From Candidatus Yonathbacteria bacterium (GTDB lineage: Bacteria; Patescibacteriota; Minisyncoccia; Phycocordibacterales; UBA1550): a DNA stretch of 64,000 bases. The notes beneath the pieces were generated by a model, which worked only from the letters and a program-made list of their open reading frames with translations, did not search any database and was not told where the DNA came from. Positions 1-20,625 of this stretch are shown in pieces. Position numbers and translations under genes: made by a program. The first letter of the stretch is position 1, and each line of letters begins with the position of its first letter. The stretch is from contig JACRKU010000013.1 in the NCBI GenBank assembly GCA_016215205.1, forward strand, positions 29,016-93,015, written 5' to 3'.

Positions 1-103
1 AAAACGGCATCACGAAACATCATCGCAAGAGTTTCCTAAAAAATGTTATGAGCTGATCGCAACACTTGATTTTTTGCGGCTCTTTTGTTATACTACCGGA
101 ACT

Positions 104-331
104 ATGGTAATACGAATGAGACACACCCGCGCGCATACGGCAAACCGCCGTTCGCATCACGCGCTCAAAGGCGCGCGCCTTTCAAAGTGCGTAAAGTGCG
201 AGGCGCTTCACCTTCGCCATCAGGTTTGCACCGCTTGCGGGACATACCGCGGAAAACCAGTCCTCAAATTGGTAAAGACAATGGCGAAGACCGAGAAGCG
301 CGTCGGAGCAAAGAGTAAGGCGGTAAAATAA
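104..331 (+). CDS. rpmF: 50S ribosomal protein L32 (bL32)
   Basis: RRSHHAL...CVKCEALHLRHQVCTACGTYRGK matches the L32 zinc-ribbon pattern; start chosen at ATG 104 to match typical L32 length; TATACT -10-like box just upstream. Confidence 0.8.
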   Translation: MVIRMRHTRAHTANRRSHHALKGARLSKCVKCEALHLRHQVCTACGTYRGKPVLKLVKTMAKTEKRVGAKSKAVK

Positions 332-406: not shown

Positions 407-1324
407 ATGGCAAACAGGCACCTTTCACGAAGTATCGTAATGCAGGTTCTCTACGAATGGGATTTTCGCGGAGGTGCTCTTACCGACCTCGAGATAGAGC
501 AGGCTATCGCGCGAAATGCCGAAGAGTTTGCTCCCGGGGTTGGCGACATTTCGTTTATGAGGAAGCTCCTCTTGGGTATACTGGGCAAACGCGCCAAACT
601 CGACGATATTATTGAAAAAGCGGCGCCGGATTGGCCAATTGATAAAATTGCGCTCATCGACCGAAATATTCTTCGCATCGGACTTTACGAACTTCTTTTT
701 GAAGATCGCGCGCAAGTACCCGCAAAGGTTGCTATTAACGAAGCAATCGAACTTGCGAAAACATACGGCGGCGAGACAAGCGGTAAATTTATAAACGGCG
801 TGCTCGGCGCTGTGTACAAAGAGCTCGGCGAGCCGGGAAAAGACGAAACAAGCAAGAAGAAAAATTTGCAAAAAATTTCGCGTGTGCCGGTTGACCCCAA
901 AACCCTTCCGCTCGACAAGCTCGGCGGCGCGGTGGTGTACGCGCGTGACGGCGCGGATGTATATCTCGGTCTCGTGCATGATATTTTTGGGCACTGGACG
1001 CTCTCAAAGGGTCATTATAAAGACGGAGAGGACGATAAAACCGCGATTACGCGCATTGTGATGGAGGAGATTGGTCTTCCCATAACACTCGGAGAAGTCC
1101 TTGGCGAAAATGAATATGTGGCGTCACACCCAGAGAAAGGAAAGATGCGAAAACATGTGAGCTACTTTCTAGCAGAGGCGCCGTATCAAGAGATTAAGCT
1201 TATGAAAAAAGGCGGTCTTGATGATGCGCAGTGGTTCAAGCTCGCAGATATCATCGACCTTAATATGTATGACGATATGCTTCCGGTGATTACGAAGGCG
1301 GTGAATATATTACTCAAGAAATAA
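407..1324 (+). CDS. nusB: NusB antitermination factor fused to a C-terminal NUDIX hydrolase domain
   Basis: N-terminal ~140 aa NusB-like (SIVMQVLYEWDF..., ALIDRNILRIGLYELLF); C-terminal ~150 aa carries a Nudix box GHWTLSKGHYKDGEDDKTAITRIVMEEIGL (GX5EX7REUXEEXGU); single continuous ORF. Confidence 0.75.
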   Translation: MANRHLSRSIVMQVLYEWDFRGGALTDLEIEQAIARNAEEFAPGVGDISFMRKLLLGILGKRAKLDDIIEKAAPDWPIDKIALIDRNILRIGLYELLFEDRAQVPAKVAINEAIELAKTYGGETSGKFINGVLGAVYKELGEPGKDETSKKKNLQKISRVPVDPKTLPLDKLGGAVVYARDGADVYLGLVHDIFGHWTLSKGHYKDGEDDKTAITRIVMEEIGLPITLGEVLGENEYVASHPEKGKMRKHVSYFLAEAPYQEIKLMKKGGLDDAQWFKLADIIDLNMYDDMLPVITKAVNILLKK

Positions 1325-1334
1325 GAACAGTTTT

Positions 1335-2033
1335 ATGGAAAAGTTTAGAGCATTTGAAGAAAAGATTGGCGTGCATTTTAAAGACCGCGCGGTTCTCCGT
1401 GAGGCTTTTACGCATCGCTCATACATAAACGAAACACGCGAGCGCGGGCTTGACCACAACGAGCGTTTGGAGTTTCTGGGCGACGCGGTGGTGGAGCTTG
1501 TCGTAACAAATTTTCTATACAAAAAATATCCTCAAGCAAATGAAGGCGACCTCACAAGCTACCGCGCGGCGCTCGTAAATGCGGTGACGCTCGGCAATCT
1601 TGCTATTGATATGGGGATGGAGGAATATCTGCTCCTTTCAAAGGGCGAAGCGAAGGACAAGGGAACGAAAGCAAGGCAGATTATTCTTGCTAATGCATTT
1701 GAGGCGCTCGTCGGTGCTATTTATCTTGACCTCGGCTACGAAGCAGCGGATAAATTTCTGAAAGACTATCTCCTTGGAAAAACAGAAGAAATCGTGAAGA
1801 AGGAACTCTGGCGCGACGCAAAAAGCTTTTTTCAAGAAGAAGCGCAGGAGCATGTTGGAATCACTCCATCGTACCGCGTTATTAGTGAAGTTGGTCCCGA
1901 CCACGATAAGGATTTCAATGTGGGAGTGTATCTCAATGATGAACTCATTGGTATCGGAACAGGTAAGTCAAAGCAAGACGCCGAACAAGGCGCCGCCGCG
2001 GATGGGTTGAAAAAGAAAGGGTGGAATAAATAA
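1335..2033 (+). CDS. rnc: Ribonuclease III
   Basis: FTHRSYINE...ERLEFLGDAVVELVVTNFLY RNase III signature plus C-terminal dsRBD-like region. Confidence 0.9.
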   Translation: MEKFRAFEEKIGVHFKDRAVLREAFTHRSYINETRERGLDHNERLEFLGDAVVELVVTNFLYKKYPQANEGDLTSYRAALVNAVTLGNLAIDMGMEEYLLLSKGEAKDKGTKARQIILANAFEALVGAIYLDLGYEAADKFLKDYLLGKTEEIVKKELWRDAKSFFQEEAQEHVGITPSYRVISEVGPDHDKDFNVGVYLNDELIGIGTGKSKQDAEQGAAADGLKKKGWNK

Positions 2034-2070
2034 TTTGAAGGTCTATAAAGTCGCAAAGTCGAGAGGTACT

Positions 2071-2106
2071 TGACACATAATATATTATTTGATACGGTTT
2101 ATTTTA
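2071..2106 (+). promoter_or_regulatory. Putative sigma70-like promoter for the small ORF at 2147
   Basis: TTGACA followed ~17 nt later by a TA-rich -10-like hexamer; AGGAGG RBS 8 nt upstream of ATG 2147. Confidence 0.3.
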
Positions 2107-2146
2107 GAGAATTTGTTGTTTAACGTTACAGATAGGAGGTGCTTGT

Positions 2147-2425
2147 ATGTACATGGATTTGGGTACAAGGACTATTCTGGTTTCTAATGTATGCATGATT
2201 CTGCAGATCCAGGGGCTCGCCCTCCTTCTTTTAATGACGCTATTGATACCCATCGCCGTTTGCGCCAGTTTTGTGGGCTTGGATTGCAATTTCTGGGTTT
2301 GCGGCGGTAATAACCGCACTCCTGTGGCCACAGATTCGTATGTCTATGTCGACAGTTCTTTCAGGGTTGTCTGGGGTCGGTATAATGATTTTCTCACTCA
2401 TCAAACTTGTTCCATAGAGCGGTAA
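2147..2425 (+). CDS. Small hypothetical protein (92 aa) with central hydrophobic helix and Cys-rich C-terminal half
   Basis: Strong AGGAGG RBS, own putative promoter, intrinsic terminator immediately downstream; hydrophobic stretch LALLLLMTLLIPIAVCASFVG then C47, C52 and further Cys in the C-terminal half. Confidence 0.4.
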   Translation: MYMDLGTRTILVSNVCMILQIQGLALLLLMTLLIPIAVCASFVGLDCNFWVCGGNNRTPVATDSYVYVDSSFRVVWGRYNDFLTHQTCSIER

Positions 2426-2430
2426 GCCAA

Positions 2431-2470
2431 AAGCTTGAAACCCACAGAGGTTTCAGGCTTTTTCTTTTTG
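2431..2470 (+). terminator. Rho-independent terminator
   Basis: aagcttgaaacc/ggtttcaggctt 12-bp stem (one G.U) followed by TTTTCTTTTT. Confidence 0.7.
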
Positions 2471-2508
2471 TCGCATCGGTAAAGCCATTATGGTAAACTA
2501 TTCCCACA

Positions 2509-4758
2509 ATGCGCGTAAAAAGTTTGGAAATTTCTGGGTTTAAGTCCTTTGCAAAGAAGAGTGTTTTTGAGTTTGGGGCATCGATTTCGGCTATTGTGGG
2601 ACCGAATGGCTCTGGAAAGTCCAACGTCGCTGAAGCGCTTCGTTTCGTGCTCGGCGAGCAGTCGCTCAAGAGTATGCGTGGCAAGCGCACAGAAGACCTC
2701 ATCTTTAACGGCTCGAAAAGCGCCGAACGGCAAAATCGCGCGAAGGTGACGATTACCTTCGACAACAAAGACCGCACATTTCCCGTGGACTTTGACGAGG
2801 TTTCCATTGCGCGCGAAATCCACCGCGACGCCTCCAGTGAATATTTTTTGAATGGGTCTTCGGTACGCTTGAAAGATATTATTGAACTCCTTGCTTCGGT
2901 GCACATCGGCGCATCGGGACACCACATCATTTCGCAGGGCGAAGCGGATAGAATTTTGAATTCGTCGCCAAAGGACCGCCGCGCGATGATAGAAGACGCC
3001 CTCGGACTCAAGATTTACCACTGGAAAATAAACGAGAGTGAAAAGAAACTTTTGAAGACTGAGGAAAATATGCGTCAGTCGGAGTCTCTCCGCCGCGAGA
3101 TTGCGCCGCATATTAAATTTTTGAAAAAGCAGGTGGAGAAAGTCGAGCAGGCTAGAACATTGCGTGATGAACTCGCGCTTCTCTATGGCGATTATTTAAT
3201 TCGTGAGGAAACATACATCAAACACGCTCGTGAGAAGCTTCATGGAGAAAAAGGAAATCTTGAACGCGAACTTCATGAGGCAAATGAGGCGCTTCTCCGC
3301 GCGGATAGTTTGCGCGGCGTGCAGACGAAAGAAAGCGCCGAGGTTTCGGAGCTTGTGCGCGTGCGCTCGGAAATGGGCGCGGTGCGCCGCGAGCGAGATG
3401 ACCTTGGGAGGAAAATCGGTCGTCTCGAGGGAATGATAGAGTATGAAGAGCGCCGTTTGAATGCGCCGGAAGTTGCGCACGAGAAAACCGTTTCTGCAGA
3501 AGAGGCGGAAAATCTCGCGCAAAATCTGTATGACGAGCTCGGTCATGCAGAGGGAAGCGAGGACTATTTGTATATTAAAGGCGTAGTGAGCGCAACGCGT
3601 AACAAGCTCGGTAAATTCCTCGAACACATCAGGGGAAGTGGTGTCCAAAGAGGTCCCCGCGAGGCGGCAATAAAAGTGCTTGAGGATTTGCGCATTGAAC
3701 ATAAAAACCTTTTGGGCGCACAAGAGAACCTTGAGGATTTGATTTCAGGCTTTGAAGAAAAAATGCGCGAGCTTGAAGCAATACTTGAGACAAAGCGCAG
3801 AGATACCACCGATGCAGAACGCGCATCTTTTGAGTTTCGCGCAAAAAAACAAGAACTTACACTACGCATTGGCATAGTACGCGAACACATTGAAAATTTC
3901 ATGCGCGACGAAGTTGCATTTCGTGAAGAACTCCGCGAGGGGGGAATCCTCGTTGGTCGTTCCATTCTCGATTATGTGAATAATCATATTGATATCGAAC
4001 AAGCCCTTTCAGAGTCACGCGCCGAGCAAGAGAGTCGTCGCAAAAAAATTGAGCGCACTAAAATTCGTTTGGAGGATATTATGGGCGGAGGGTCAGGGGA
4101 GGATATTATGCGCGAGTATGAAGAAGCGGTGGAGCGTGATGTGTTTCTCTCGAAAGAACTCGAGGATTTGAAAACAAGCGCGGAGTCTCTCCGTGAATTG
4201 ATGCGCGGACTCGACGAGGAGCTTGGCGCGCAGTTCAAGGACGGTATTAAGAAAATCAATAAGCAGTTTGGAGAATTTTTTGCATTGATGTTTGGCGGTG
4301 GTACTGCATCGCTTGAAGTTGCGTTAGATAAAAAGAGGAAGCGTGGCGATACAGATATCGAAGGACTATTCGAAGGAGAGCCTGACGACGAAGAAGAAAC
4401 AGAAGAGGGAATTGATGTTGCGATTTCTTTGCCGCACAAAAAAATCCGCGGACTGCAAATGCTTTCTGGTGGCGAGCGCGCGCTCACATCTATCGCACTC
4501 ATCTTTGCGGTTTCGCAGGTGAATCCGCCGCCATTTCTTGTACTCGATGAAACTGATGCGGCTCTCGATGAAGCAAACTCTAAAAAGTATGGCGACATGG
4601 TCGCAACGCTCGCAAAATATTCCCAGCTCATCGTCATAACGCACAACCGCGAAACAATGTCCCGAGCAGGAATTATTTACGGCGTGACGATGGGCTCTGA
4701 CGCTATCTCAAAACTCCTCTCTATTAAGTTTGAGGAAGCGGAGCAGTTGGCGAAGTGA
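2509..4758 (+). CDS. smc: SMC-family chromosome condensation ATPase, short hinge-less form (749 aa)
   Basis: N-terminal head with FKSF, Walker A GPNGSGKSN, Q-loop region; long coiled-coil middle; C-terminal head with signature LSGGERALTSIALIFAV, Walker B FLVLDETDAALD, D-loop; no recognisable hinge (no G-rich hinge motif), length ~430 aa shorter than canonical SMC. Confidence 0.8.
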   Translation: MRVKSLEISGFKSFAKKSVFEFGASISAIVGPNGSGKSNVAEALRFVLGEQSLKSMRGKRTEDLIFNGSKSAERQNRAKVTITFDNKDRTFPVDFDEVSIAREIHRDASSEYFLNGSSVRLKDIIELLASVHIGASGHHIISQGEADRILNSSPKDRRAMIEDALGLKIYHWKINESEKKLLKTEENMRQSESLRREIAPHIKFLKKQVEKVEQARTLRDELALLYGDYLIREETYIKHAREKLHGEKGNLERELHEANEALLRADSLRGVQTKESAEVSELVRVRSEMGAVRRERDDLGRKIGRLEGMIEYEERRLNAPEVAHEKTVSAEEAENLAQNLYDELGHAEGSEDYLYIKGVVSATRNKLGKFLEHIRGSGVQRGPREAAIKVLEDLRIEHKNLLGAQENLEDLISGFEEKMRELEAILETKRRDTTDAERASFEFRAKKQELTLRIGIVREHIENFMRDEVAFREELREGGILVGRSILDYVNNHIDIEQALSESRAEQESRRKKIERTKIRLEDIMGGGSGEDIMREYEEAVERDVFLSKELEDLKTSAESLRELMRGLDEELGAQFKDGIKKINKQFGEFFALMFGGGTASLEVALDKKRKRGDTDIEGLFEGEPDDEEETEEGIDVAISLPHKKIRGLQMLSGGERALTSIALIFAVSQVNPPPFLVLDETDAALDEANSKKYGDMVATLAKYSQLIVITHNRETMSRAGIIYGVTMGSDAISKLLSIKFEEAEQLAK

Positions 4759-7656: not shown

Positions 7657-7686
7657 TTGAAAATTTGTACCACTGCATGGTACAAT
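7657..7686 (+). promoter_or_regulatory. Putative promoter (-35 TTGAAA, -10 TACAAT)
   Basis: TTGAAA at 7657-7662, 18-nt spacer, TACAAT at 7681-7686, ATG at 7696. Confidence 0.35.
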
Positions 7687-7695
7687 ATAAACACG

Positions 7696-8892
7696 ATGGC
7701 ATTTTCTTTTTTTACTAATCGCGGAAATGATGAAACGCTGATCCTCCTTGTTGATATCGGGTCAGCGAGCGTGGGCGGCGCTCTTGTAAAGATTGAAAAA
7801 GGTCGCGCGCCGAATGTTCTTGCAACAGTTCGCAAAGACATCTCATTCCAAGAAGCGCTTTCTTCCGCTCGTTTCTTATCTGCAATGAATCACGCGCTCG
7901 ACCAAGTTTTAAAAACTATCCACCCAAAAACTACCGTCTTAGGTTCTCCCGCGCATATTTTTTGCACGCTTTCGTCCCCTTGGTTTATTTTAAAGACTCG
8001 CCGTTTATTGATTTCACGTCAAGAAGAATTTGAAGTAACCGAACGAGCTCTTGATGAATTTATAAGTGAAGACATCGCGCGTCTGAAAGAAGAACTCAAA
8101 GAAACGCTTCCGCCGAAGGATGTGAAAATCATCGAAAAGAAAATCATTCAGATGAAATTGAATGGATATGAGATCAAAAATCCATACGGCCAAAAAACGT
8201 CACAAATGGAGATTTTGATGACCATCGGGGTTTCGTCCGAAAAGGTTATTGAAAGCATCGAGCGTAAGCTCGGCAATGTTTTTCACGCAAAATCAGTCCA
8301 CTTCGGCGCATTTCCCATTGCCGCATTTAGCGCAGTAAGGGATATTTCCCCAACCGAAAAGAATTTCCTTTTTCTCGACATCACTGGCGAGGCGACCGAT
8401 GTATCACTGGTAAACAATGATCTTTTAATGGGGACGGTGACATTCCCCCATGGAAAAAATTTTTTTATTCGCGAAATTTCTGCGGAGATGCGCACTGTCC
8501 ACTTTGAGGCGGCAACGCTCTTTGCAATGTTTCTCCGTGATGAGTTGGATGACACAAAACGCGCCAGGATTGCGGCTATTATTGCGCGCGCTGAAGACGA
8601 ATGGCTTGCGCGCCTCGAAAAGTCGCTTGGTGCCCTTGCGAAGAACGGTGTATTGCCTCAGAAGGTATTTTTTACAACAGATGCTTTTATCGCTCCACTG
8701 TTTTCTTTGCTCCTCTCTCGCCGAGACCATATCGCAAAGATGGAGCACGGAACGAACGCATCGTTTGAGGCTCAGTATCTCGACCAGCTTATTGTTGAAA
8801 AGTTTGTTTCGTTCAATACGGGAGTTATTAGGGATCCGTTTATGGTCATTGAAGCGCTCCTAGCTTTCAAAATAGTCACGCAACACAAATAA
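7696..8892 (+). CDS. Actin-fold ATPase-like protein (FtsA/PilM/Ppx-GppA superfamily), hypothetical
   Basis: Two phosphate-binding-like motifs LLVDIGSASVGGALV and FLFLDITGEATDVSLV typical of ASKHA/actin-like ATPases; no family-specific motif recognised. Confidence 0.5.
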   Translation: MAFSFFTNRGNDETLILLVDIGSASVGGALVKIEKGRAPNVLATVRKDISFQEALSSARFLSAMNHALDQVLKTIHPKTTVLGSPAHIFCTLSSPWFILKTRRLLISRQEEFEVTERALDEFISEDIARLKEELKETLPPKDVKIIEKKIIQMKLNGYEIKNPYGQKTSQMEILMTIGVSSEKVIESIERKLGNVFHAKSVHFGAFPIAAFSAVRDISPTEKNFLFLDITGEATDVSLVNNDLLMGTVTFPHGKNFFIREISAEMRTVHFEAATLFAMFLRDELDDTKRARIAAIIARAEDEWLARLEKSLGALAKNGVLPQKVFFTTDAFIAPLFSLLLSRRDHIAKMEHGTNASFEAQYLDQLIVEKFVSFNTGVIRDPFMVIEALLAFKIVTQHK

Positions 8893-8893
8893 T

Positions 8894-10240
8894 ATGAATG
8901 ACATTATCCGAAAACAAATGAAAGATGTGATTGTTCCTCATAACGAGGTTATTCGTCGAGTGCCAACCGTACCCGAACCGTACGCCGCGCCAAAGCCTTC
9001 AGAAGAAATGGGGCGCATCGAAAAAAATCCATTTTTCAAAAAGGAGAGAAAAAAAGATGACGAACCACCAAAAGGCAAAAGCGCGCGTTCCCACGCGCTT
9101 ACTTGGGCGTTTCTGGCAGTCGCACTTTTGGTCGCAGTTTTTGTTGTCGCAAACTATTTTTCATCGGCGACGGTAGAAATCACGCCTATCACGCGAAGTA
9201 TAAATCTAGACCGTGATTTTACAGCGGTTTCGTCCGACAAAGCGGTGGAAGGCGATCTCATTTTTCATTTTGTTGCAACTTCCACGGAAAAAATAAAAGA
9301 GGTCCCCGCAACGGTCGAAAAGAAGATTCAAAAAAAAGCGTCAGGGAAAGTAACAATTTTCAACTCCTATAATGGAGAAAGTCAGCGTCTCATCAAAAAC
9401 ACGCGCCTCGAGTCTCCCGGTCGCAAAACATATCGCATCGACCAGTCGGTGATTGTGCCAGGGATGAAGGTCGTCAATGGCAAAAATATGCCCGGCTCTG
9501 TTGAGGCGGTCGTCTATGCCGATGCTCCCGGTCCGGATTATAATATTGATAAACCTGCCGATTTTACAATCCCCGGGTTTAATGGTGACCCCCGATATAC
9601 GAAGTTTTACGCACGCTCAAAACCGGATTCTCCTATCACGGGCGGTTTTTCCGGAACCGTGAATATTCCCTCGGACGAAGCAATCCTACTTGCGCAAGAA
9701 GAATTGAAGCAAGAGCTCCCTAAAATCGCGATTGAAAAAGCGCGCGCGCAGATTCCCGACGGAATGTCGTTGTTTCCCGGAGGTGTGATAATAAAATTTG
9801 AAGATGTGCCGCAGGACATAACCTTAGGCACGCTGTCAAAGGTTGTCGTGCGCGCCACGGCATCGGTATTTTTCTTTGATACGACTGTTCTCACAGAGAA
9901 ACTTGCAGCCGCATTATTGTCCGAAGACAAAGGAAAAACATTCGTAGTCTCTAATATGTCCGCTCTCGCATTCTCATTCGTTGACCCCGTGAACAACGTA
10001 GTTCTCTCTGACCTCTCAAAGATAAGTTTTCATATCAAGGGGGACTTGGTGTTTGTGGGGCAGATTGATGCCACAAAAATCCGCGCGGAACTCGCGGGCA
10101 AAGAAAAAAAAGATTTTGGCAAACTTATCGTCGGAGAGAATAGTATCGGCAAGGCGGATGTTGTTATTCGTCCAATGTGGAAAACTGCCTTTCCTAAAGA
10201 CCCCACAAAGATTACAATAAAAATTGTTAGCGGGGAATAG
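8894..10240 (+). CDS. Bitopic membrane protein with ~360-aa extracytoplasmic domain, hypothetical
   Basis: Translationally coupled to upstream gene (TAA-T-ATG); charged N-terminus, single TM (LTWAFLAVALLVAVFVVANYF), large C-terminal domain without recognised motifs. Confidence 0.5.
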   Translation: MNDIIRKQMKDVIVPHNEVIRRVPTVPEPYAAPKPSEEMGRIEKNPFFKKERKKDDEPPKGKSARSHALTWAFLAVALLVAVFVVANYFSSATVEITPITRSINLDRDFTAVSSDKAVEGDLIFHFVATSTEKIKEVPATVEKKIQKKASGKVTIFNSYNGESQRLIKNTRLESPGRKTYRIDQSVIVPGMKVVNGKNMPGSVEAVVYADAPGPDYNIDKPADFTIPGFNGDPRYTKFYARSKPDSPITGGFSGTVNIPSDEAILLAQEELKQELPKIAIEKARAQIPDGMSLFPGGVIIKFEDVPQDITLGTLSKVVVRATASVFFFDTTVLTEKLAAALLSEDKGKTFVVSNMSALAFSFVDPVNNVVLSDLSKISFHIKGDLVFVGQIDATKIRAELAGKEKKDFGKLIVGENSIGKADVVIRPMWKTAFPKDPTKITIKIVSGE

Positions 10241-20100: not shown

Positions 20101-20625
20101 ATGAACCTTACGAATAACTATAAAGGCCACGCCGGTGTCGAGTATATTTTTGAATATTCTGATGCTGATTCTTTTGATGATTTGAATTTTAATAAGTGCA
20201 CTCAAGTATACGGAGTTTGTTTTTATGGCGATAAAATTGTAATAGGCTTTGGCGGCGCAAAGAAAAGCTGGGGACTAATCGGCGGGACAATTGAAAGAGG
20301 GGAAACGTTTGCGCAAACACTTGTGAGAGAAATACAGGAAGAATCAAATATGAAAGTGATGTCATTCTTGCCAATAGGATATCAGAAAGTTATAGATACA
20401 CGCGATGATAGTTTTTACTATCAGCTTCGCTATGTTTGCCTCGTACAACCCTACGGACCTTTTGTATCTGACCCAGCTCTCTCAGTAACAGAGATAAAAT
20501 TCATAGACCCCAAAGAATACAAGCAGTATTTTGACTGGGGGAGCATAGGTGACAGAATAATAGAAAGAGCATTAGAATTAAAGCATAAACTCAATTACGT
20601 GGGACTTGACAAAAAGCTGAAATAG
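20101..20625 (+). CDS. NUDIX hydrolase
   Basis: Nudix box GGTIERGETFAQTLVREIQEESN; AT-rich like the upstream peptidase gene. Confidence 0.75.
   Translation: MNLTNNYKGHAGVEYIFEYSDADSFDDLNFNKCTQVYGVCFYGDKIVIGFGGAKKSWGLIGGTIERGETFAQTLVREIQEESNMKVMSFLPIGYQKVIDTRDDSFYYQLRYVCLVQPYGPFVSDPALSVTEIKFIDPKEYKQYFDWGSIGDRIIERALELKHKLNYVGLDKKLK

Follow-up and report, generated by a model that had tools for sequence, protein, structure and literature searches.

A NusB protein extended by a Nudix-fold domain with a degenerate catalytic box in Patescibacteria

Gene layout and neighbourhood of the nusB-nudix fusion

The locus described here lies in a 64-kb window (the whole 64,000-nucleotide stretch of Candidatus Yonathbacteria DNA that was analysed) and carries a gene in which a NusB domain is followed, in the same frame, by a Nudix-fold domain (Table 1). 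Few bacterial transcription factors are as conserved or as well studied as NusB, which nearly always occurs as a bare protein of 140 amino acids. An earlier reading made from the sequence only had proposed that the two halves share one frame and are connected by a Lys-rich linker, and both proposals were borne out: the 305-aa open reading frame runs without interruption, the Pfam NusB and NUDIX domains both score above their gathering cut-offs, and the AlphaFold model of the fusion shows two folded domains separated by a disordered Lys-rich linker (residues 143-161, pLDDT <50). A database protein is 100% identical to the fusion and is annotated 'transcription antitermination factor NusB [Candidatus Yonathbacteria bacterium]'. 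In support of a start at 407, the residues M1, A2, R4, H5, L6, R8 and S9 are near-invariant in the homolog alignment.

Table 1 Features of the nusB-nudix locus (positions are those of the window)
Feature	Position	Strand	Basis or remark
Promoter-like site before rpmF	66..94	+	TTGATT-17-TATACT, extended TG
rpmF (ribosomal protein L32)	74..331	+	Pfam Ribosomal_L32p, E=3.2e-13
nusB-nudix fusion gene	407..1324	+	Uninterrupted ATG-to-TAA ORF, 305 aa plus TAA stop
NusB domain, residues 1-140, all-helical	407..826	+	Pfam, TIGR01951, PDB and Foldseek matches
Junction motif Y137-K-E-L-G-E-P-G-K145 (end of NusB domain, start of linker)	815..841	+	Near-invariance
Lys-rich flexible linker, residues 146-167	842..907	+	Low pLDDT, low conservation
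Nudix-fold domain, residues 168-305, Ap4A/ApnA-hydrolase type	908..1321	+	Pfam, PDB, Foldseek
Nudix box segment, residues 202-224, GHYKDGEDDKTAITRIVMEEIGL	1010..1078	+	Matches GX5EX7R-UXEEXGU, without the Glu after Arg
Codon ATT for Ile217, first-Glu position of REUXEE	1055..1057	+	Alignment with NUDT2 and C. elegans Ap4A hydrolase
rnc (RNase III)	1335..2033	+	Pfam Ribonucleas_3_3, Ribonuclease_3, dsrm
Strong terminator	2429..2462	+	Terminator-like site search

The gene order rpmF, nusB-nudix, rnc and smc is conserved. In the window, rnc begins 10 nt past the stop codon of the fusion gene, and no terminator-like site was found on the + strand from 331 to 2033 except a weak match at 1703 inside rnc. 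Among the 80 species loci, about 75 had rpmF upstream in the same orientation. Of the 79 that carry the fusion, 78 had rnc downstream in the same orientation, either immediately adjacent or no more than about 2 kb away, and the exception (L080) is a 1.4-kb contig; rnc was also present downstream in the highly divergent members P0239 and P0186. Co-transcription of rnc with the fusion gene is probable. The window also contains rnr nearby. The nusB gene of E. coli, unlike the fusion gene, is not known to adjoin rnc.

The N-terminal half is an orthodox, bona fide NusB, as its first description had suggested. It matched the Pfam family (PF01029) over residues 7-138 (E=1.3e-33, 116.7 bits against a gathering cut-off of 23.1), and the NCBIfam nusB equivalog model TIGR01951 gave 128.5 bits against a cut-off of 88.35, so that residues 1-140 constitute an equivalog-level match. 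NusB chains in the PDB were matched with E=4e-21 to 4e-14. In Foldseek comparisons, the half superposed on T. maritima NusB with a target-normalised TM-score of 0.85 (rmsd 1.9 A) and on the NusB structures 1tzv, 1eyv, 4eya and 3r2c with scores of 0.84-0.87; the AF2 model places six helices across residues 4-140, with mostly high confidence. Conservation extends to R4 and R8 in the N-terminal segment and to the Tyr that matches E. coli Y18, indirect evidence that the half may pair with S10/NusE and bind boxA RNA. Compared with the characterised NusB proteins of E. coli, T. maritima, Aquifex and M. tuberculosis, the half therefore shows the same fold and an equivalog-level match, whereas those proteins stand alone, with solved chains of 139-156 aa; the fusion adds the GEPGK junction, the Lys-rich linker and a Nudix domain of ~140 aa, a real departure from the usual NusB of about 140 aa.

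No second NusB-like ORF was found in the 64-kb window besides the fusion gene, and when the window was scanned with Rfam for signs of an rRNA leader or boxA, two tRNAs were the only matches. Because the N-terminal half is a bona fide NusB and rnc lies directly downstream, a link of the fusion to rRNA transcription and processing is reasonable. A precedent for a NusB-fold RNA-binding domain joined to an rRNA-acting enzyme fold in one polypeptide is RsmB/Sun, the 16S rRNA m5C967 methyltransferase. The RsmB models matched residues 7-153 of the fusion (E 6e-16 to 1e-11) at 58 bits, far under their cut-off of 319; RsmB differs in carrying a paralogous NusB-like domain that is joined to a SAM methyltransferase instead of a Nudix domain.

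Distribution of the fusion and conservation of its junction

Related genomes were then compared for the same architecture. Both Pfam domains were present in all 120 homologs listed (65-100% identity; NCBI, JGI, ENA and Logan assemblies). Relatives of the Nudix module occur in at least 592 species-representative genomes, and among the best 80 of these, examined as GTDB species-representative loci, 79 carried both domains in one stop-free frame, the exception being cut by a contig end. Fusions accounted for 56 of the nearest 150 clusters at 50% identity, with Nudix identity falling to about 30%, and in 40 diverse members Pfam recovered NusB in 40 and NUDIX in 37. All named fusion genomes belong to Patescibacteria/Paceibacterota. 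Few named entries occurred among the clusters of divergent fusions and stand-alone relatives, and these were 'NUDIX hydrolase' proteins of Actinomycetota and Omnitrophota. Literature searches on NusB together with Nudix, Patescibacteria or antitermination returned no published description of the fusion architecture.

The junction between the two halves is the most conserved stretch of the fusion protein, with a mean majority conservation of 0.92 for the junction motif versus 0.74 for the NusB and 0.73 for the Nudix domain (79 species). In the set of 80 formed by the window protein and the 79 species genomes, the motif residues G141, E142, P143, G144 and K145 are each found in 77-80 sequences; among the matches listed, they occur in at least 119 of 120 homologs. 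The linker is the least conserved segment (0.57); that of the window protein bears a private 4-aa insertion, KNLQ, which is absent from 119 of the 120 homologs among the matches listed.

These data bear on whether adjacent nusB and Nudix genes were merged by a frameshift or a missed stop in the assembly. A 2.4-kb metagenomic contig (L086), in which NusB and Nudix are called as separate genes, would fit such an artefact; its split, however, is a single in-frame TAA at the Tyr137 codon, after which the junction motif continues in the same frame (..GAV*KELGEPRKD..). The artefact is also at odds with the junction being the best-conserved part of the protein, and with the one continuous frame seen in the 120 listed homologs and the 79 of 80 species loci, which come from independent projects. 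Because the frame is continuous across so many independent assemblies and species, the artefact is effectively refuted and we regard it as exceedingly improbable; no frameshift or stop separates the halves, and the two-gene reading is rejected. We conclude that the fusion is no erroneous merger of two genes but a genuine feature that has become fixed throughout a large and diverse clade.

Several candidates for other architectures were set aside. The entry P0140 on contig L086 was not accepted as a split arrangement, its lone TAA on a 2.4-kb contig being a sequencing error or a recent nonsense mutation, and P0130, a supposed split relative, is a gene cut by a contig end. An apparent NusB-Nudix-RNase III triple fusion arose from overlapping stop-to-stop ORFs in different frames, and no ORF held all three domains. 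Those of the close, short 'stand-alone' matches that were looked up were not intact stand-alone genes; the other short matches, with a partial Nudix profile or without a start Met, were taken to be gene fragments on short contigs. One relative, P0155, does genuinely stand alone; it has a full box, and its surroundings resemble a phage or mobile element.

The Nudix-fold domain and its catalytic box

The C-terminal half matched Pfam NUDIX (PF00293) over residues 176-290 (E=6.7e-13, 49.3 bits against a gathering cut-off of 21.1). A phmmer search of the PDB with this half retrieved CT771 (4.4e-6), human NUDT2 (1.8e-5) and the C. elegans Ap4A hydrolase (2.3e-4). Foldseek gave a probability of 1.00 against many Nudix structures, with target-normalised TM-scores of 0.75-0.85 for the Aquifex and C. 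elegans Ap4A hydrolases and CT771, and of 0.68-0.85 across NUDT2-type Ap4A hydrolases; the Nudix sensor domain of NrtR was among the fold matches, and the fold similarity to the MutT1 Nudix domain was a general one. Overall, the best sequence and fold matches to residues 168-305 were the asymmetric Ap4A/ApnA hydrolases (NUDT2, the C. elegans enzyme, CT771, Aquifex aq_158, T. thermophilus Ndx1 and mycobacterial MutT1/Rv2985), which share with the fusion the motifs GHWT..KGH..GEDD and K.V.Y[FW]LAE, the flanking HWTxPKGH and YWLAE being aligned. Scores fell well below the cut-offs of the NCBIfam equivalog models for RppH (NF001936, 19.6 bits versus 118; NF001938, 11.5 versus 116), MutT1 (NF052459, 24.9 versus 475) and MutT (NF008044, 11.7 versus 148). 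Two differences from the Ap4A/ApnA hydrolases stand out: their Glu after the Arg (NUDT2 E58, C. elegans E52) is Ile in the window protein, and those enzymes are free-standing, whereas the domain of the fusion is tethered to NusB and has lost further box residues in most fusions. Descent of the domain from an Ap4A/ApnA-hydrolase-type (NUDT2/RppH-like) enzyme, taken jointly with the binding role proposed below, has in our judgement an even chance of being right.

The Nudix box had initially been described as canonical. Relative to the consensus GX5EX7REUXEEXGU, the window protein reads G202-X5-E208-X7-R216-I217-V-M-E220-E221-I-G223-L, which means that the box is not canonical, Ile replacing the first Glu of REUXEE. 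Ile217 aligns with NUDT2 Glu58 (LRETQEE in the wild-type chain and LRATQEE in the E58A chains) and with C. elegans Glu52. Some enzymes of the Nudix superfamily work without the Glu after the Arg, for example the GDP-mannose mannosyl hydrolase of E. coli. In NUDT2, which dephosphorylates pppRNA in an RppH-like manner, the E58A mutant is inactive on this substrate (PMC8616924), and the 'RIL' variant of NUDT9 (E230I/F231L) is inactive and yet binds ADP-ribose with a Kd of 16 nM (PMC7612441); the box of the TRPM2 NUDT9-H domain likewise does not support hydrolysis (PMC4974056).

Position 217 changes among E, I, V, K, G and A, close relatives included: the 120 close homologs among the matches listed have I in 72, E in 36 and V in 7, and the 79 species have E in 33, V in 16, K in 11, G in 7, A in 6, I in 5 and N in 1. 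The rest of the box is well kept in the window's own sub-clade (at least 65% identity, 120 matches listed), where E220 and E221 occur in 119-120 of 120, E208 in 105 (plus 14 with Asp) and R216 in 108 (plus 11 with Lys). Over a wider range it decays. A complete box was found in 25 of the 79 species orthologs, about a third; among 49 diverse fusion representatives, 7 have the full box, 13 lack E217 only and 29 lack further core residues; and in 40 diverse fusions E217 is kept in 8, E220 in 21, R216 in 25, E208 in 27 and E221 in 33. By comparison, the textbook GEREEEG box is intact in 20 of 30 representatives that lack the NusB half; the remainder include fragments or disrupted copies of fusion genes.

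The fold as a whole behaves differently from the box. Within the Nudix domain, the box segment shows the lowest majority conservation (0.60 across the 79 species). In the 40 diverse fusions E208, R216, E217, E220 and E221 all stay below 90%, whereas G174, D192, W197, T198, K201, Y237, Y253, L255, W276 and Y288 are conserved at 90% or more. For columns at least 80% conserved in the stand-alone relatives, retention in the fusions was 0.57 at catalytic versus 0.77 at non-box positions, a modest contrast on a small sample (one-sided Mann-Whitney p=0.039). Judged from these alignments, purifying selection acts on the Nudix fold as strongly as on NusB, while the catalytic box residues are under relaxed constraint. 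They have also been lost repeatedly: in a tree built without the box columns, fusions with a full box are interspersed with members whose boxes are degenerate in different ways.

Candidate roles of the Nudix module

The sequence-only reading had further held that the fusion couples rRNA antitermination to a Nudix hydrolase, possibly one decapping RNA at the transcription complex. The first part stands, in that the fusion is real and its link to rRNA reasonable; the active hydrolase is not supported, the Glu equivalent to NUDT2 E58 being missing and the box degenerate in most lineages. Spelled out, this alternative would have NusB deliver to nascent rRNA either an RppH/NUDT2-like RNA 5'-pyrophosphohydrolase or decapping enzyme, or an Ap4A hydrolase, which would convert the leader 5' end for later 5'-end-dependent decay or clear Np4N nucleotides and caps at the transcription complex. 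It is consistent with the nearest characterised relatives being Ap4A/ApnA hydrolases, with the activity of NUDT2 on pppRNA (PMC8616924), with the G202, E208, R216, E220, E221 and G223 kept by the window protein and strongly conserved in its sub-clade, with the full box in 25 of 79 species and 7 of 49 diverse representatives, and with the RNase genes in the neighbourhood (rnc adjacent, rnr nearby). Against it stand the Ile at the Glu whose mutation inactivates NUDT2 (PMC8616924) and NUDT9 (PMC7612441), the variability of position 217 even between close relatives, the 29 of 49 diverse fusions that lack additional core residues while the rest of the domain is conserved, the 19.6 bits against the RppH model, and a separate canonical Nudix gene in the same window. 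We consider an active hydrolase, in either form, somewhat unlikely. The protein of that separate gene has an intact REIQEE box.

Since no part of the domain is less conserved than the catalytic box, which is degenerate in most lineages, hydrolysis is not the conserved function of the module. Its conserved role is probably, to go by the pattern of residues kept and lost, the binding of a nucleotide or an RNA 5' end within the rRNA antitermination and RNase III processing machinery. That the module binds a ligand as a pseudo-enzyme, or at best as a feeble enzyme, is the best overall explanation, in which our confidence is evenly balanced. The window protein, which keeps E208, R216, E220 and E221, may have residual or atypical activity; because about a third of species retain the complete box, some full-box orthologs are probably active enzymes, and the fusion family may be functionally heterogeneous. 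The retention of E220, E221, E208 and R216 in the sub-clade would be expected if metal-dependent chemistry were still selected there, a point against binding alone.

The most likely ligand would be a nucleoside polyphosphate moiety, for instance a free ApnN-type nucleotide or the 5' end of the nascent pre-rRNA leader bearing a (tri)phosphate or an Np4 cap. In the proposed sequence of events, NusB-S10 would bind boxA first, and the tethered Nudix module would then act as an anchor or sensor in the rRNA antitermination complex, where it could help to present the leader strand for the leader-trailer helix that is cut by the co-encoded RNase III. From synteny and the biology of E. coli, we infer this role in anchoring the leader or its 5' end. 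The window protein, with its R-I-VMEE box, is predicted to bind ligand and Mg2+ through E208, R216, E220 and E221, with poor or no turnover.

There are precedents for such a module. In TRPM2 NUDT9-H, CFIm25/NUDT21 and the NrtR effector domain, the Nudix fold has a degenerate box and has been kept for binding a ligand or RNA as part of a larger regulatory assembly. The Glu-to-Ile change of the window protein is also present in TRPM2 and in the NUDT9 'RIL' variant, with binding kept and catalysis lost (PMC4974056, PMC7612441), and CFIm25, which works in RNA processing, binds Ap4A or ATP and does not hydrolyse it (PMC2425470). These modules differ from the one described here in belonging to other Nudix subfamilies (ADP-ribose pyrophosphatase-like or CFIm) and in their partners, namely an ion channel, a eukaryotic cleavage factor and a winged-helix DNA-binding domain, and none of the three modules is joined to a Nus factor.

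A purely structural role should also be weighed, in which the module would be a protein-protein interaction domain of the antitermination complex, with no small-molecule or 5'-end ligand, and would contact RNA polymerase, NusA or NusG, S10 or RNase III in a manner analogous to SuhB in the E. coli rrnTAC. The conservation of the fold while catalytic residues decay agrees with this role, as does the near-invariant YKELGEPGK, which lies in a predicted disordered region and resembles a docking motif. However, D192, W197, K201, K249 and Y288 are conserved in the fusions and also in stand-alone canonical enzymes, K201 and Y288 align with C. elegans Ap4A hydrolase K36 and Y121, which we take to be a phosphate-binding and an adenine-stacking residue, respectively, and E221 persists in 33 of 40 fusions. 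The coincidence of the conserved fusion residues with those of canonical enzymes and with K36 and Y121 points to a preserved nucleotide pocket. Pocket residues are assigned by sequence alignment with partial ambiguity, and the assignment of the adenine-stacking Tyr is not used as support: HMMER pairs H241, not Y237, with NUDT2 Tyr87, and by eye NEY237VA resembles LNYVA. In E. coli, the NusB-containing complex includes SuhB, which has an enzyme fold, stabilises the complex (PMC6614801) and promotes RNase III processing. Its likeness to the Nudix module is a functional analogy only, that of an enzyme fold inside a NusB-containing complex; SuhB has an inositol monophosphatase fold, is a separate polypeptide and binds NusA, NusG and RNA polymerase. 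Taken together, we find the structural role quite improbable.

In a more specific form of the binding role, which we consider unlikely, the module would have lost catalysis and would serve as a 'reader' of a nucleoside-polyphosphate mark. This mark would be either a free ApnN alarmone or the 5' end of the nascent pre-rRNA leader, carrying a triphosphate or an Np4N cap. Such a reader could clamp the leader 5' end into the antitermination complex and hand the leader-trailer helix to the co-encoded RNase III, or it could make rRNA antitermination responsive to a stress nucleotide. If this were true, the module would be a new lineage-wide component of the Patescibacteria machine for rRNA transcription and processing, and might functionally replace a factor such as SuhB.

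Genome-reduced organisms seldom keep dispensable sequence, and the rRNA biology of Patescibacteria is known to be unusual. Because the hosts are genome-reduced and the Nudix domain is as conserved as NusB itself, the domain probably contributes to rRNA synthesis or maturation. For annotation, these fusion proteins are labelled simply 'NusB', and their Nudix half should not by default be called an active hydrolase. Overall, an extra domain has become permanently attached to NusB across a radiation of ultra-small, uncultivated bacteria; its catalytic motif decays while its fold persists, which provides a natural series from enzyme to pseudo-enzyme, and the fusion offers a testable entry point into the architecture of the antitermination and processing complex in Patescibacteria.

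Architecture and spread of the NusB-Nudix fusion

The nusB-nudix gene is one uninterrupted reading frame from ATG to TAA. In its product, the Pfam NusB match covers residues 7-138 (E=1.3e-33) and the NUDIX match residues 176-290 (E=6.7e-13), both over the gathering threshold, and the NCBIfam nusB equivalog TIGR01951 (cut-off 88.35) scored 128.5 bits. In a PDB sequence search, the N-terminal half matched stand-alone NusB chains (139-156 aa) and the C-terminal half matched Ap4A hydrolases (Chlamydia CT771, human NUDT2 and the C. elegans enzyme); no NCBIfam equivalog (RppH, MutT and MutT1 models) was reached by the C-terminal half. An AlphaFold2 model (18 homologs as input, mean pLDDT 82) contained two folded domains, a helical one (NusB) and an alpha/beta one (Nudix), separated by a disordered segment (143-161). 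Foldseek against the PDB matched the former to NusB (target-normalised TM-score about 0.85) and the latter to ApnA-hydrolase-type Nudix proteins, with the non-catalytic NrtR Nudix sensor domain also among the matches. These results bear out the sequence-only reading that NusB is fused in-frame to a Nudix domain, and identify the protein as a NusB, presumably that of the organism itself, to which a domain derived from an Ap4A hydrolase is appended. The two halves belong to the NusB family and the Nudix fold superfamily, respectively, the latter being most like NUDT2-type Ap4A hydrolases.

An identical copy of the window protein is in the databases, encoded on a 106-kb contig of a Candidatus Yonathbacteria MAG, and both Pfam domains were present in 120 of 120 listed homologs with 65-100% identity from NCBI, JGI, ENA and Logan assemblies. 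Related genomes were surveyed by a GTDB scan (one genome per species) with a Nudix-only alignment as query, and at least 592 species genomes were found to encode a relative of the Nudix module. The best 80 of these matches all came from Patescibacteria/Paceibacterota, including Yonath-, Nomura-, Taylor-, Kaiser-, Zambryski-, Lloyd- and Campbellbacteria (many MAGs carry generic taxon labels, e.g. 'uncultured Candidatus Saccharibacteria'), and 79 of the 80 loci had NusB and Nudix in a single stop-free frame, the exception ending at a contig end. The recurrence of the same in-frame fusion in both sets excludes a frameshift or merging artefact. The one gene that seems to be split, at database locus L086 on a short contig, merely has TAA as its Tyr137 codon; since the frame and junction motif continue unchanged past this lone in-frame stop, it is either a nonsense mutation of very recent date or an error of sequencing.

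The Nudix half was also compared exhaustively by phmmer with 1.84 billion 50%-identity representatives. This gave 140 matches at E<=1e-10, and a NusB N-terminus was found on 56 of the best 150 matches, at Nudix identities as low as about 30%. Of 40 diverse full-length members, all had a Pfam match to NusB and 37 had one to NUDIX. One divergent fusion member gave a weak match (E=6.5e-4) to Pfam NUDIX_2 (PF13869), the family that includes the non-catalytic CFIm25. Hundreds of NusB-Nudix proteins are already in databases, labelled 'NusB' only, and a literature search found no description of this architecture. RsmB is a precedent for joining a NusB-fold domain to an rRNA-directed enzyme fold.

The best-conserved stretch of the entire protein is the junction motif YKELGEPGK (Y137-K145), in which G141, E142, P143, G144 and K145 were each kept by 77-80 of the 80 proteins compared (one from each of 79 species genomes, and the window protein). 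The larger part of it falls in the predicted disordered segment. It resembles the short linear motifs used for docking, and the NusB proteins of E. coli and T. maritima do not have it. In the window protein, the linker that follows has a private four-residue insertion (KNLQ, residues 152-155), missing in 119 of 120 close homologs.

Genomic setting and other features of the window

The fusion gene lies in the order rpmF (L32), nusB-nudix, rnc (RNase III) and smc, with rnc beginning 10 nt past nusB-nudix and an RNase R gene close by on the opposite strand. No convincing terminator was found between rpmF, nusB-nudix and rnc; a strong one follows in the rnc-smc spacer. The order rpmF, nusB-nudix, rnc (then smc) was seen in essentially all 80 species loci and is also kept around P0239 and P0186, very divergent members with an unrecognisable Nudix box (in P0186, NUDIX is below Pfam detection). 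That RNase III might be part of the fusion as a third domain was suspected, checked explicitly and rejected.

The rnc-smc spacer is unusually long and gave no Rfam match; the ORF within it probably represents a separate small gene whose product is secreted or membrane-bound. In the SMC homolog, the SMC_N match spans residues 3-734, so that both heads and the coiled coil between them are packed into a compressed form. Typical bacterial SMC proteins are much longer (about 1,150-1,200 aa), and the short form may be a reduced-genome feature. Two adjacent large ORFs had no Pfam match at E<=0.001.

Coordinates of the features discussed (window positions unless a database locus is named)
Feature	Position	Strand	Remarks
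nusB-nudix ORF	407..1324	+	305 aa
Junction motif	815..841		end of NusB domain
Linker	842..907		
rnc-smc spacer	2034..2508		about 475 nt
Promoter-like sites	2059..2088		inside rnc-smc spacer
ORF, 92 aa	2147..2425		hydrophobic N-terminal stretch; AGGAGG Shine-Dalgarno 8 nt upstream of ATG 2147
Intrinsic-terminator-like hairpin	2429..2462		strong; in rnc-smc spacer
SMC homolog	2509..4758	+	749 aa; downstream of rnc
Large ORF	7657..8892	+	411 aa
Large ORF, adjacent	8894..10240	+	448 aa
Second, stand-alone Nudix gene	20101..20625	+	174 aa
TAA replacing Tyr137 codon	L086 937..942		metagenomic contig; gene call split into 'NusB' and 'NUDIX'
P0155 (stand-alone Nudix relative)	L087 4001..4453		

State of the Nudix box

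The sequence-only reading had called the Nudix box canonical, which did not hold. Against the consensus GX5EX7REUXEEXGU, the window box reads G202..E208..R216-I217-V-M-E220-E221-I-G223-L, with Ile217 replacing the Glu that follows Arg, and the C-terminal half thus lacks the complete catalytic motif that defines Nudix hydrolases. Among 120 close homologs, position 217 is Ile in 72, Glu in 36 and Val in 7, and E220 and E221 are near-invariant. The box was complete in 25 of 79 species orthologs, lacked only the Glu after Arg in 30 and had further losses in 24; the corresponding numbers for 49 diverse representatives were 7, 13 and 29. Degenerate boxes among the fusions include GMSVREG, SHAAKEG, NSETDEG and GGDGNEN.

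Majority conservation across the 79 species orthologs was 0.73 for the Nudix domain and 0.74 for NusB, the box segment being the least conserved part of the former (0.60). In the Nudix half of 40 diverse full-length fusions, G174, D192, W197, T198, K201, Y237, Y253, L255, W276 and Y288 were at least 90% conserved, a level that none of E208, R216, E217, E220 and E221 reached. When the comparison was limited to columns with 80% or higher conservation among 14 stand-alone relatives, retention in the fusions was 0.57 at catalytic versus 0.77 at non-box positions (one-sided Mann-Whitney p=0.039, small sample); the counts show this contrast in conservation clearly, although sample sizes are modest. 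These data show purifying selection on the appended domain, with relaxed constraint on its catalytic motif. That the module is a purely structural, SuhB-like interaction domain is quite improbable, because the residues that stay constant among the fusions do so in canonical stand-alone enzymes as well.

In a neighbour-joining tree with the box columns left out, intact-box fusions were scattered among variously degenerate members, which indicates repeated and independent decay from a canonical ancestor. As a control, 20 of 30 representatives without a NusB half had the textbook GEREEEG pattern, and at least some of the other 10 derive from fusion genes, either as fragments or as disrupted copies. 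The second Nudix gene of the window (Pfam NUDIX E=4.7e-8, no NCBIfam equivalog reached), which served as an internal control, has an intact REIQEE box (GGTIERGETFAQTLVREIQEESNM). Canonical boxes thus stay where catalysis is presumably needed. P0155, a full-box and genuinely stand-alone protein among the closest such relatives of the fused domain, has an integrase, a DNA methylase and a Phage_rep_O-like gene as neighbours, a phage- or mobile-element-like context.

A possible ligand-binding role for the Nudix module

Alignment to the C. elegans Ap4A hydrolase equates K201, H196 and Y288 with K36, H31 and Y121, which would make them residues of a preserved pocket. Ile217 aligned (HMMER) with Glu52 of that enzyme and Glu58 of human NUDT2, in which the site reads LRETQEE in wild-type and LRATQEE in E58A crystal chains. 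NUDT2 is an RppH-like RNA 5'-phosphatase, and its E58A variant did not dephosphorylate pppRNA or pppGpA (PMC8616924). NUDT9 E230I/F231L, with a TRPM2-type box and the identical Glu-to-Ile change, was inactive and still bound ADP-ribose with a Kd of 16 nM (PMC7612441). TRPM2 NUDT9-H box proteins showed no ADP-ribose hydrolysis (PMC4974056), and CFIm25, a Nudix-fold subunit in the machinery that processes pre-mRNA 3' ends in eukaryotes, bound Ap4A/ATP and did not hydrolyse them (PMC2425470). Given the NUDT9, TRPM2 and CFIm25 cases, Nudix folds turned into ligand- or RNA-binding modules in regulatory machines are well precedented.

An active hydrolase at the transcription complex, as the sequence-only reading proposed, would be RppH/NUDT2-like and is unlikely: hydrolysis is possible for some orthologs, and those with complete boxes may well be active, but with catalytic boxes mostly incomplete it cannot be what the family as a whole conserves, and the window protein is missing a residue that two related enzymes have been shown to need. 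Weak or atypical hydrolysis by the window protein is possible because E208, R216, E220 and E221 are retained.

We instead propose that the module binds a ligand. NusB-S10 would bind boxA of the pre-rRNA leader, as elsewhere in bacteria, and the Nudix module, on a linker of about 25 residues, would bind a nucleoside polyphosphate moiety via its preserved pocket. The most plausible ligand would be a 5'-ppp or Np4-capped leader end, or a free ApnN nucleotide, the binding of which may serve to anchor or sense inside the antitermination complex. In E. coli this complex bridges the 5' and 3' rRNA ends, promoting co-transcriptional RNase III processing (see also PMC10250234), and the invariant rnc adjacency fits such a role. 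If the fusion does place a 5'-end or alarmone reader in the rRNA transcription/processing machine of Patescibacteria, its interest would be notably higher.
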